Shown: piece after piece, positions 23,544 through 26,897 of the stretch
Layout of the letters: the number at the start of each line of letters is the position of its first letter
Numbering within the stretch: the stretch's first letter is position 1
Assembly (NCBI GenBank): GCA_000004695.1
Contig: CM000151.3
Location: 5,792,001 to 5,856,000 of the forward strand
Direction: 5' to 3'
Source: Dictyostelium discoideum
Taxonomy: Eukaryota
DNA: 64,000 nt
Notes under the pieces: generated by a model
Told to the model about the DNA's origin: nothing
The model's input: only the letters and a program-made list of their open reading frames with translations
Database searches by the model: none
Made by a program: the position numbers and the translations under genes

Positions 23544-26500
23544 ATGACAGAAAAATATAAGGTAAACTTTTTTTATATTTTATTTTTATTTTATATTTTA
23601 AATTATAATTTCAATCTTGTAATTTCAATTTTTCCAACATCATTTTCTCAAATTAATTCAACAAATGGGTTTTTAATATCAGAAGGCAGAAGTTTAATTT
23701 CAATTGCACATGGAGACTTGAACGGTGATGGTAATGATGATTTGATATATGCTATAAATTCAGAAGGACTATATGTATTTTATGGGCCATTAGCAAGTAA
23801 TTTTAATTTTCAAACAGACACATCAAAGATCAACGGTTCAAATGGTTTTATTTTTTTAAATACTGCTGTTCGAATGAATAATATAGCTGTTGGTGATATA
23901 AATAATGATGGGTTTGACGATATTGCTCTTTTTTTATTTATTATACCAGGAAAACTTTGTGTTATCTATGGTACTGATCAAATTATATCACCTTCTACTT
24001 TTTCGACAGTGAATGGTAATAATGGTTTCTATATTTCTCACGTTTCGTCCTCTAATATTGCATTTGGGTTTGTAAGATCAATCATTGATTTCAATGGTGA
24101 CTCAATTAAAGATTTATTTGTAGGTACAGATTTTTTTTATTTTTTTATTTTGTTTTTAAAAGGGGTATTCACATGGGTATTAATACATATTTTTTTTTTT
24201 TTTTTTTTTTTTTAGGTCTCTGCAAGTATAGGAACTTATGTAGGTACAGGAACACCAATTTCATATATGATATTTGGTATAAATGGTGGTAAATTTCAAG
24301 TTAATTCACAATTTGAATTTGACCCTTCAACATTAAATGGGAGTAATGGTTTTTTAATTAATAATTTCAATTCATATGCGGCTTATCCTTATGATATGAA
24401 TAATGATGGGATTGGTGATATAATGATAAATAGGGGACAGATAGCAATCGATATTATTTATGGTAGTAGAGGTCCTTTTACCTCACCATATATCCCAGTT
24501 TATGATGGTGTCAAAGGTACCAGTTTCAGCTTTTTAGGTTGCTCAACAAATAATAATGCTCTTCCAAATGCTTTTGGAGATTTTAATAATGATGGACTAA
24601 ATGATTTTGGTGTAATTTATTCTTTATTATTTTTTGATTATTCTTATTCTTTATTATTCTTTATTGTTATTATACTAATTTTTACATTTTATTAAATAAT
24701 TTTAGATTCCTACAAAACATACTTCGGGTGACTATATAGCTTTTTTGGTTTGGGGTAAAACAGAATATCCACCAACAACAACATTAAGTATAAATCTAAA
24801 TCCATCGGATGGTTTGGTTATAGCAGTTGTTGGCAACATCTATAGCTGGGCTTTATCTCCTAGATTGGGGGATATAAATAATGATGGATTTGCAGATTTT
24901 TTAATCAGTGGTAACACTGACCTCCCATTCACCATTTTGTATGGTAATAATAAAAATTATGCTTCAAATCCAGTTTATTTAAAAGATCAAGTTGGTGATT
25001 GTTCAAAAATGTCAATTAATGGCTATGCTACGGCTATTGATATTGGTGATTATAACTCTGATGGTATTGATGATATTGTAAGTAATATTATATTAAATCA
25101 ATTATTATTATTATTATTATTATTATTATTATTATTATTATTATTATTATTATTATTATTATTATTATTATTATTATTATTATTATTATTATTATTATTA
25201 TTATTATCATTATTATTAACTTTTAAATAATTCTATTCTATCAGACAGCATCTATATTATCAACAGGTTCATATTTAGATATTTATACAATATATGGTCA
25301 AACTTCGATTGGTTCAATTTCAATAATTAGTAAATTATTTCAACCAAATCCAATGTCAAACTCAATTTATAAATTATTTGAAAATAATATTAATTCAGAA
25401 GTTGGACAATGCGCAATTAGAATTGTTACATTAACAATTGAAAATCCAGCAAATGAAGATCAATTTATTATTGATCCTAGTTTCGATAGTTCAATATATT
25501 CAATAACATTTAATAATAATACAAGAGTTAGAATTGAATTAATATTATTTGGTGATGAGAGTAAATCAATTGCAAATGATGTTTTACCAAAAATAACAGT
25601 TTCATTGTCACATCAGCTATTTAATAGAACTATATTAATGAAATATGGTAATCAAGTACAATCAATTAAATTCATTGGTCAACCAAATGCAAATTGTGAT
25701 ACAAAATGTTTAAATGGAGGTACTTGTAATCCATTCACTGGTTGCCAATGTATAAATGATCATTATGGTGATTATTGTGAATTAAAAGATTGTACAGTTC
25801 CACAATGTTTAAATGGTGGTTCATGTAATACTACAGTTGGTGAATGTTCGTGCGCTCAAGGTTATGAAGGTACGGATTGCAGTGGTATTAGTTGTTCAGC
25901 TTCATGTTTAAATGGTGGTTCATGTAATACTACAGTTGGTGAATGTTCATGTCCTCAAGGTTATGAAGGTATAGATTGTAGTGGTATTAGTTGTTCAGTT
26001 TCATGTTTAAATGGTGGTTCATGTAATACTACAGTTGGTGAATGTTCATGTCCTCAAGGTTATGAAGGTGTAGATTGCAGTGGTATTAGTTGTTCAGCTT
26101 CATGTTTAAATGGTGGTTCATGTAATACTACAGTTGGTGAATGTTCATGTCCTCAAGGTTATGAAGGTGTAGATTGCAGTGGTATTAGTTGTTCAGTTTC
26201 ATGTTTAAATGGTGGTTCATGTAATACTACAGTTGGTGAATGTTCATGTATAAATGGCTTTTATGGTGATAATTGTGATACAAAGGATTGTACAGTTCCA
26301 CAATGTTTAAATGGTGGTTCATGTAATACTACAGTTGGTGAATGTTCATGCACTCAAGGTTATGAAGGTATAGATTGTAGTGGTATTAGTTGTTCAGTTT
26401 CATGTTTAAATGGTGGTTCATGTAATACAACAGTTGGTCAGTGTCAATGTATAAATGACTTTTATGGTGATAATTGTGGTACAAAGGATTGTACAGTTCC

Positions 26501-26897
26501 ACAATGTTCAAATGGTGGTTCATGTAATACTACAGTTGGTGAATGTTCATGCACTCAAGGTTATGAAGGTATAGATTGTAGTGGTATTAGTTGTTCAGTT
26601 TCATGTTTAAATGGTGGTTTATGTAATACTACAGTTGGTCAATGTCAATGTGTTGAAGATTATGATGGCGATGATTGTGGTTCTGAAAATAAAAAGAAAA
26701 CAAATATTGGTGTTATCATTGGCCCAATTCTAGGTGGTCTTGCACTAATTGCAATTATTGTTGTTGCAATTGTTTTAATTAAAAAGAAGAAGAATGGAAA
26801 TTCAAAAAAAAATACAAATAACATTGAATTAAGACCTCAAGGTTCCACTGTTGATATTCAAATGGGTGGTAGAATTAAAAATCTTGATAAATTTTAA
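23544..26897 (+). CDS. type I membrane protein with integrin-alpha-like FG-GAP/Ca-binding beta-propeller repeats and ~10 tandem tenascin-type EGF repeats, single TM and short cytoplasmic tail; 4 exons approx 23544..24123, 24244..24611, 24706..25077, 25245..26897
   Basis: Signal-peptide-like N-terminus. FG-GAP/DxDxDG motifs: IAHGDLNGDGNDDLIYA, VGDINNDGFDDIALF, DFNGDSIKDLFVG, GDINNDGFADFLISG, DYNSDGIDDI. EGF repeats follow the pattern CLNGGSCNTTVGECSCPQGYEGVDCSGISCS. TM segment is IGVIIGPILGGLALIAIIVVAIVLI, followed by a KKKKNG tail. Introns: GTAATT (24612)…AG (24705); GTAAGT (25078)…AG (25244), containing (TTA)n. Intron 1 is ambiguous (see findings). Confidence 0.65.
25880..26650. repeat. coding tandem repeat: 96-bp (32-aa) EGF units, near-identical at nucleotide level
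   Basis: tcatgtttaaatggtggttcatgtaatactacagttggtgaatgttcatgtcctcaaggttatgaaggt(g/a)tagattg(c/t)agtggtattagttgttcag repeated about 6 times with only a few substitutions, interspersed with a 38-aa variant unit (CTVPQCLNGG…). Confidence 0.85.

Follow-up and report, generated by a model that had tools for sequence, protein, structure and literature searches.

We analysed a 64,000-nucleotide stretch of Dictyostelium discoideum DNA (assembly GCA_000004695.1, contig CM000151.3, positions 5,792,001 to 5,856,000 of the forward strand; hereafter, the window). The window has a G+C content of about 22% with long A/T runs, a composition typical of Dictyostelium. The gene of interest is the already annotated but unstudied D. 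discoideum AX4 gene DDB_G0275659 on chromosome 2, and its spliced translation of 998 amino acids (aa) is identical, residue for residue, to XP_643521.1, EAL69580.1 and UniRef100_Q869K4. Databases list Q869K4 either as 'hypothetical protein DDB_G0275659' or as 'EGF-like domain-containing protein'. In a second assembly, GCA_054883475.1, all 3354 bp of the gene are identical, including the array of epidermal growth factor (EGF) repeats and an (ATT)39 tract, while the flanks of the gene differ from the window by small insertions and deletions. The EGF repeats are therefore not an assembly artefact, and the array, which a sequence-only reading of the window had left open to collapse or misassembly, is reproduced in full. 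As first described, the finding was ordinary, with a gene model already annotated in AX4 and a first-intron puzzle that is clearly answered below. What is new is a face-specific hypervariability within a young multigene family.

The sequence of DDB_G0275659 indicates that its product is a type I membrane glycoprotein, in which a signal peptide is followed by seven FG-GAP blades, an orphan domain of about 130 aa, ten EGF repeats, a transmembrane helix and a 38-aa tail (Table 1). Every Pfam match lies above the curated cut-offs: FG-GAP_3 (PF13517) with 59.6 bits (cut-off 26.9), FG-GAP (PF01839) with 46.7 bits (cut-off 22.1), EGF_TEN with 137.5 bits (cut-off 65), EGF_2 with 112.8 bits over nine stretches, and hEGF. 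Each blade contains a calcium-type D-x-N-x-D-G/S-x-x-D loop, starting at aa 58, 118, 182, 252, 314, 380 and 439, with serine replacing glycine in blade 3. The AlphaFold2 (AF2) model, computed from an alignment of 60 homologues, is confident over the propeller, with a predicted local distance difference test score of 80–94 and 28 strands in seven groups, four per blade. A Foldseek search of the PDB was dominated by FG-GAP propellers and returned BBS2/7/9, ITFG2, CRTAC1 and the integrins alpha-V, alpha-4 and alpha-IIb with a probability of 1.0, and the best PDB match by sequence profile is to the calcium-binding blades of integrin alpha-V (E = 1.5e-18). For the middle domain, no homologue was found outside Dictyostelium and no fold match was significant. 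The complete tail sequence is KKKKNGNSKKNTNNIELRPQGSTVDIQMGGRIKNLDKF, of which the ELxPQ motif and the C-terminal LDKF persist in D. purpureum. The sequence-only reading had proposed integrin-alpha-like, calcium-binding FG-GAP blades, about ten tenascin-type EGF repeats, a transmembrane segment and a short basic tail. The Pfam scan, the AF2 model, the motifs and the hydropathy profile agree with this layout, the hidden Markov model scan matches EGF_2 and EGF_TEN, and exactly ten repeats are counted.

Table 1. Features of DDB_G0275659 and its surroundings, in window coordinates (ORF, open reading frame; TRF, Tandem Repeats Finder)
Feature	Position	Strand	Basis or remark
DDB_G0275659 coding sequence, ATG 23544 to TAA ending 26897, 4 exons, 998 aa	23544..26897	+	ORF interrupted three times; exact protein match
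Exon 1, aa 1-192: signal peptide, blades 1-2, first half of blade 3	23544..24119	+	
Signal peptide, ~aa 1-35	23544-23648	+	AF2 model: helix 3-19, then beta strands
Seven-bladed FG-GAP beta-propeller, aa ~36-466 (span with introns)	23649..25298	+	Pfam, AF2, Foldseek, PDB profile, motifs
11-mer TGTAGGTACAG, copy 1: final exon base and first 10 intron bases	24119..24129	+	intron part common to most D. discoideum copies
Intron 1, 96 bp, phase 0, donor GTAGGT, T-rich tract, acceptor TTTAG	24120..24215	+	conserved position and splice sites
Exon 2, aa 193-324: remainder of blade 3, blade 4, first half of blade 5	24216..24611	+	
Blade-3 strand 2-3 loop, aa 198-204, one of 14 hypervariable top-face loops	24231..24251	+	DSSP on AF2 model
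11-mer TGTAGGTACAG, copy 2, in exon 2, codons Y-V-G-T of blade-3 loop	24239..24249	+	absent from other copies
Intron 2, 94 bp, phase 0, GTAATT...TTTTAG	24612..24705	+	
Exon 3, aa 325-448: remainder of blade 5, blade 6, first half of blade 7	24706..25077	+	
Intron 3, 167 bp, phase 0, GTAAGT...ATCAG	25078..25244	+	
Exon 4, aa 449-998 and stop	25245..26897	+	
Orphan middle domain, aa 467-598, predicted mostly beta	25299..25694	+	
Array of 10 six-cysteine EGF repeats	25695..26684	+	TRF, Pfam, motif list
EGF units 3-5, three 99-bp units, 97-99% identical	25893..26189	+	amplification specific to this copy
Double EGF units 6+7 and 8+9, 201 bp each, 96% identical	26190..26591	+	duplication common to paralogues
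Transmembrane helix IGVIIGPILGGLALIAIIVVAIVLI, aa 936-960	26706..26780	+	hydropathy maximum; conserved in D. purpureum
Cytoplasmic tail, 38 aa, lysine-rich/basic, KKKK...ELRPQGST...LDKF	26781..26894	+	
Segmental duplication footprint, ~6 kb, 90-96% nucleotide identity to paralogous loci	21722..27804	+	blastn of four paralogous loci against the window
Bax1-I-like gene copy, co-duplicated, start lost, pseudogene relic	21722..22840	+	compared with intact gene at DDB_G0285585 locus
11-mer TGTAGGTACAG, third copy, F-V-G-T in protein-kinase activation loop (SFVGTDSHMAPE)	50061-50071		

Beyond Dictyostelium, the propeller is closest to FG-GAP proteins of bacteria, which align with it in all seven calcium loops at about 27–33% identity; the best 120 propeller matches include no other eukaryote. 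These proteins, variously annotated as FG-GAP, 'integrin alpha' or beta-strand-repeat proteins of Nostoc, Flavobacteriia, Planctomycetota and metagenomes, share with DDB_G0275659 an LNGxNGF motif and a calcium loop in every blade. They differ in that they continue into RTX (HemolysinCabind), type IX secretion system (T9SS) sorting, HYR or cadherin modules, and in that they carry neither EGF repeats, nor a eukaryotic transmembrane segment with tail, nor introns. Judging from the sequences, this closeness to bacterial proteins could reflect either horizontal transfer or database bias. CRTAC1 (9etn), among the top Foldseek hits, also combines a calcium-loaded FG-GAP-type propeller with later domains that include an EGF-like one. 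The likeness is structural only: CRTAC1 is a secreted protein with only one calcium-binding EGF domain, and a Pfam search found no UnbV_ASPIC domain after the FG-GAP repeats of DDB_G0275659. To our knowledge, CRTAC1 does not form a hypervariable multigene family.

The closeness to alpha-V, the best solved sequence relative, raises the question of whether the protein is a true integrin alpha chain, that is, a Dictyostelium integrin that pairs with a beta-like subunit, for instance a Sib protein, in a heterodimer. As in alpha-V and alpha-IIb, a type I protein carries an N-terminal seven-bladed FG-GAP propeller, preceded by a signal peptide and anchored by a transmembrane helix, with DxDxDGxxD-type hairpins opposite the ligand-binding loops, and the cation hairpins of DDB_G0275659 align to the calcium blades of alpha-V. 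However, three or four blades carry calcium loops in integrins, whereas the calcium loop and LNGxNGF recur in all seven blades here, as in the bacterial relatives, and the thigh and calf legs of integrins are replaced by the orphan domain and the EGF repeats. No Integrin_alpha2 or other leg-domain Pfam match was found between propeller and membrane at E ≤ 0.1, inspection of the tail sequence revealed no membrane-proximal KxGFFxR motif, no beta partner is known, and the family occurs only in Dictyostelium species among the proteins retrieved. A true integrin alpha chain is therefore a very improbable reading. The leg domains and the GFFKR motif were looked for and are absent, which places DDB_G0275659 outside the integrin alpha family.

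A looser definition would admit it. A survey of Amoebozoa lists Dictyostelium as having neither ITGA nor canonical ITGB, but Sib proteins; it defines 'Type II' ITGA-like proteins as those carrying extra domains such as EGF, and describes a homologue in Flabellula citata in which an EGF-like domain follows the propeller head on its C-terminal side (Kang et al., bioRxiv 10.1101/2020.04.29.069435). The family would fall within this loose 'Type II ITGA' class (bioRxiv 10.1101/2020.04.29.069435), to which it corresponds, compared by description, in its FG-GAP head with cation motifs and its non-integrin domains, although that survey reports none in Dictyostelium. It is the only preprint found in the literature that treats FG-GAP proteins and Dictyostelium together.

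DDB_G0275659 belongs to a set of five genes in AX4, the others being DDB_G0271042, DDB_G0285585, DDB_G0285745 and the degenerate DDB_G0285565 (ACTFIT_005806 in the newer assembly). DDB_G0285745, which AX4 annotates as truncated, has its full length in the newer assembly (ACTFIT_005832). DDB_G0275659 shares 89–95% identity with the other members across its first 630 aa; its identity to the D. purpureum orthologue is 39%. It shares with the family of DDB_G0271042 and DDB_G0285585 the domain order, the middle domain, the transmembrane helix and a tail ending in LDKF. The order formin, Bax1-I-like gene, FG-GAP-EGF gene is found in D. citrinum, D. dimigraforme and D. cf. discoideum as well as at DDB_G0285585 and, on this comparison of sequences, is taken as the ancestral locus. 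The sequence evidence thus places DDB_G0275659 among five AX4 copies that arose through recent segmental duplications, of about 5–6 kb, of that locus; similarity between the window and the paralogous loci is confined to about 21722-27804. The Bax1-I-like copy carried along with it is disrupted by two or more frameshifts when compared with its intact counterpart at the DDB_G0285585 locus, whereas the receptor ORF stayed intact. In the D. discoideum strain GCA_054859355.1, the ancestral locus holds a tandem pair of members (866 and 1000 aa, at positions 10001-12984 and 13942-17233 of the locus sequence), so that the copy number and location of the family differ between strains.

The ligand-binding upper face of an integrin propeller is built from the 2-3 and 4-1 loops, and its lower face carries the calcium hairpins. 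We applied the same division to DDB_G0275659, with loops defined from the strands that DSSP assigns in the AF2 model, and compared six D. discoideum copies (15 pairs). At the top face, 49 of 82 loop positions vary among the copies (60%), against 7 of 181 (4%) in the calcium-binding 1-2 loops and the 3-4 loops of the bottom face (Fisher p = 1e-23). The amino-acid differences sit in short clusters; the calcium-loop face, the middle domain (9 of 133 positions variable), the transmembrane helix and the tail are nearly invariant. Blade 3 provides an example, in which residues 197–204 read GTYVGTGT, GTYVSTGT, GTYATSGT, GTFGSTGT, GTFDSGGT and GTFGSGGT in the six copies.

The same contrast is seen at the nucleotide level. 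By a simple Nei-Gojobori count in a very AT-rich genome, over pairs that are not independent and loops taken from one predicted model, the nonsynonymous divergence (dN) of the top loops is 0.06–0.24, and its ratio to synonymous divergence (dN/dS) is 1.0–3.3 in all 15 pairs; outside the top loops, dN is 0.005–0.024 and dN/dS is 0.26–0.73. For five of the six comparisons made, top-loop nucleotide divergence (0.046–0.24) is significantly above that of the introns (0.006–0.093), by 3- to 10-fold and with p between 1e-3 and 1e-14. One might suppose that redundant young duplicates are simply drifting towards pseudogenes under relaxed constraint, with no selection for diversity. The whole-propeller dN/dS of about 1, the clear degeneration of DDB_G0285565 (ACTFIT_005806), the truncated AX4 annotation of DDB_G0285745 and the pseudogene state of the co-duplicated Bax1-I-like neighbour would all suit such a decay. 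Drift would, however, be expected to spread changes evenly rather than to leave 60% of top-loop but only 4% of bottom-loop positions variable, and the low dN/dS outside the top loops, the several-fold excess over intron divergence and the intact ORF, splice sites, cysteines and calcium motifs all run counter to it. We regard decay without selection as decidedly unlikely. Relaxed constraint alone cannot yield the loop pattern, and the simplest reading of the aligned sequences is diversifying selection on the top face.

Several points weigh against this reading and against the receptor function that we derive from it. Apart from the limits of the divergence count given above, the comparison with DDB_G0271042 is an exception, in which top-loop divergence is not significantly above that of the intron (p = 0.41). 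Synonymous divergence is also raised in the top loops (0.03–0.19, against 0.01–0.05 elsewhere and 0.006–0.055 in introns), so a mosaic produced by gene conversion, with old loop variants on a homogenised scaffold, or local hypermutation may contribute. The assignment of loops to top and bottom follows, by analogy, integrin structures from the literature. The receptor reading is built on sequence and predicted structure, and neither the five family gene identifiers nor Q869K4 is mentioned in any paper in the literature.

The variable face also bears on what kind of ligand might be bound. The protein could be a calcium-dependent lectin for glycans of bacteria, spores or the slime sheath instead of a module for protein-protein recognition. 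The Foldseek hits include AAL2 (4tqm/4tqj), a fungal lectin whose FG-GAP propeller binds N-acetylglucosamine, the propeller is most closely related to FG-GAP proteins that bacteria secrete or carry on their surface, and seven near-equivalent blades suit multivalent binding. Lectin sites are usually conserved, however, whereas the exposed face is hypervariable here; no lectin family is matched by sequence in Pfam, and the structural matches, at TM-scores of 0.2–0.4, are such as any seven-bladed propeller would give. A dedicated lectin thus seems unlikely.

Below the propeller, the copies also differ in the EGF array. According to Tandem Repeats Finder, the array repeats every 99 bp (8.8 copies) and, at a higher order, every 201 bp (99 + 102). 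The ten units measure 96, 102, 99, 99, 99, 99, 102, 99, 102 and 93 bp; the 96-bp periodicity proposed earlier applies to unit 1 only and happens to be the length of intron 1. All ten units have six cysteines, and nine contain an N-T-T glycosylation sequon. The array resembles those of tenascins and teneurins in forming a rod of tandem six-cysteine units of 31–34 aa, and it matches EGF_TEN and EGF_2 strongly. In contrast to these, it bears a propeller at its distal end, is built of 99/102-bp units with the sequon in nine of ten, and varies in copy number between very recent paralogues.

The near identity of the units at the DNA level, as claimed by the sequence-only reading, is confined to units 3, 4 and 5, to units 7 and 9 (99%) and to the double units 6+7 and 8+9; between units 6 and 8 the identity is 93%, and it is 58–95% in the remaining pairs. 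Likewise, the differences between units 3 and 4 are three transitions, as that reading had it, but they are not confined to wobble positions, since two of the three alter the amino acid (A/V and I/V). Every unit type has a counterpart of 96–100% identity at the matching position in other D. discoideum copies, and units 3–5 all find their best match in one unit, unit 3, of DDB_G0271042, DDB_G0285745 and DDB_G0285585. The 99-bp triplication is thus recent and specific to DDB_G0275659, and the 201-bp duplication is shared. Homologues carry from four EGF units, in D. purpureum, to ten, and ten is reached by three arrangements, namely those of DDB_G0275659, of DDB_G0271042 and of ACTFIR_011061 and ACTFIW_002025. 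As this variation between paralogues and strains demonstrates, EGF units have been repeatedly gained and lost in 99-bp and 201-bp steps, and the recent expansion suspected from the sequence is supported.

The propeller-coding part of the gene is interrupted by three introns. All three are in phase 0 and lie at equivalent sites of blades 3, 5 and 7, just past the calcium loop (KDLF|V, NDFG|I and DDI|T), so that exons 2 and 3 each encode about two blades. The D. purpureum orthologue is without these introns and has a single one elsewhere (aa 292|293). The (ATT)39 microsatellite lies inside intron 3 (25101-25218), the same in both assemblies.

Intron 1 had been considered ambiguous, and we therefore aligned it across the six D. 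discoideum copies, D. cf. discoideum, D. citrinum, D. dimigraforme and D. purpureum. Except in D. purpureum, the intron occupies one phase-0 position, after ...K-D-L-F, in all aligned sequences, with the donor GTAGGT, GTAAGT or GTATGT and an acceptor consisting of (T)n-AG followed by GT(C/A)TC. Donor 24120 and acceptor 24215 are thus conserved in every relative that has the intron. D. purpureum reads gat tta ttt ttc tca aca agt gta aaa gca tat tcg ggt aca aat cca with no intron, codon-for-codon homologous to 24216-24249 and onward; hence 24216-24249 is coding and the acceptor ends at 24215. The D. purpureum ORF is continuous across the junction of exons 1 and 2, as opposed to the separate transcripts that the sequence-only reading had allowed for. 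The annotated AX4 protein uses the junction 24119|24216, and the blade consensus D-L-I-I-G-A-P-x8-G-x-S-Y-V-x-F-G, from bacterial and Dictyostelium proteins, fits the longer exon version. These comparisons of sequence identify 24120-24215 as what appears to be a single ordinary intron.

The earlier proposal was that several acceptors of intron 1, all in frame and aided by an 11-mer repeated at the donor and in the acceptor region, vary the blade-3 linker by alternative splicing. AGs do end at 24215, 24231, 24243 and 24249, both copies of the 11-mer TGTAGGTACAG are present (one base away from the positions first assigned to them), and the stretch affected, 24231-24251, encodes the variable 2-3 loop of blade 3. 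The four sites are, however, not in frame with any one donor. With donor 24120 (GTAGGT), only acceptor 24215 keeps the frame, and the other three shift it and lead to a stop within 4–9 codons; these three would give in-frame products only from position 24124, where the donor, GTACAG, is weak. Moreover, the first AG, which follows a run of more than 20 T, is conserved in all intron-bearing species, whereas the downstream AGs are not conserved even in other D. discoideum copies, the one at 24231 being missing in D. dimigraforme and D. cf. discoideum. As the stretch is coding in all relatives, including the intronless D. purpureum, alternative use of these acceptors is extremely improbable.

The 11-mer has three matches in the window against 0.25 expected from shuffles. 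The copy in exon 2 is perfect only in DDB_G0275659, where it hinges on one S-to-G codon change in the variable loop; the other D. discoideum copies read gtaagtacag, gcaacttcag, ggaagtacag, gatagtggag or ggtagtggag at this site. Since the exon-2 copy encodes Y-V-G-T and the one in the kinase gene F-V-G-T, the 11-mer amounts to V-G-T in common codons that also resembles a donor, and neither the alignment of copies nor the frame analysis gave any sign of a splicing role. The match at 50061 was considered as a possible further family paralogue in the window; there is none, the site being the F-V-G-T codon run of a protein-kinase gene. An origin of intron 1 by tandem duplication of an AGGT-containing exon piece, for which splicing of 24123 to 24244 would restore the original, was also rejected, because 24216-24249 is homologous to intronless D. 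purpureum coding sequence, the boundaries 24120 and 24215 are conserved, and the exonic 11-mer differs in the paralogues. Overall, the first observation of this locus is largely real once its numbers are corrected: the architecture was right, the repeat dynamics are borne out between paralogues, and no support was found for an ambiguous, alternatively spliced intron 1.

The gene is preceded in the window by an RNA polymerase I largest subunit ORF (RPA1-like; 17296-21651), which has RNA_pol_Rpb1 domains in GCA_054883475.1. The annotation of the newer assembly joins the Bax1-I-like copy to this upstream subunit in a 1906-aa product, which looks like an annotation artefact. An (AAT)61 microsatellite lies 3' of the gene (27216-27399), and the downstream neighbour on the minus strand (30886-31974) is, from a reading of its sequence, a GTPase-like ORF. 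Two neighbouring ORFs had no exact match among recorded proteins, probably because their annotated gene models depart from the raw ORFs.

Taking the sequence comparisons together with the predicted structure, we consider that the family probably forms a set of diversifying surface recognition or adhesion receptors. In this model, the propeller would be stiffened by calcium and held off the membrane by a rigid, N-glycosylated EGF rod, the length of which would change by one or two units. The hypervariable top face would bind an external ligand, protein or glycan, that belongs to another cell, to a prey bacterium or to the matrix, and the conserved transmembrane helix and tail would link the receptor to sorting or signalling machinery. 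The mode of action of the propeller may resemble either that of an integrin alpha head or that of a surface lectin or adhesin.

TgrB1 and TgrC1 are single-pass surface proteins for allorecognition in social amoebae, with highly variable extracellular domains. The parallel to DDB_G0275659 is a functional analogy only; they have an IPT/TIG fold as opposed to FG-GAP and EGF modules, and nothing ties DDB_G0275659 to kin recognition. A more far-reaching proposal is that the family constitutes a previously unrecognised, diversifying recognition system of social amoebae. Here, a bacterial-type propeller, possibly acquired horizontally and calcium-loaded in all seven blades, would sit on an EGF stalk of variable length and expose a face under positive or balancing selection; it would discriminate kin or mating type, or prey and pathogens, and stand in for the reportedly missing integrin alpha. 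We regard this proposal as doubtful, if conceivable.

A conserved scaffold, one face that changes faster than introns and a stalk that varies in length by whole EGF units together are the signature of a recognition receptor, such as those acting between self and non-self or between host and microbe. The face-specific hypervariability in a young family makes its genes, as far as sequence can tell, reasonable recognition-receptor candidates. Dictyostelium is a model for kin discrimination and for bacterial recognition and reportedly has no integrin alpha, so this unstudied family of membrane FG-GAP proteins offers testable candidates for adhesion and recognition receptors.

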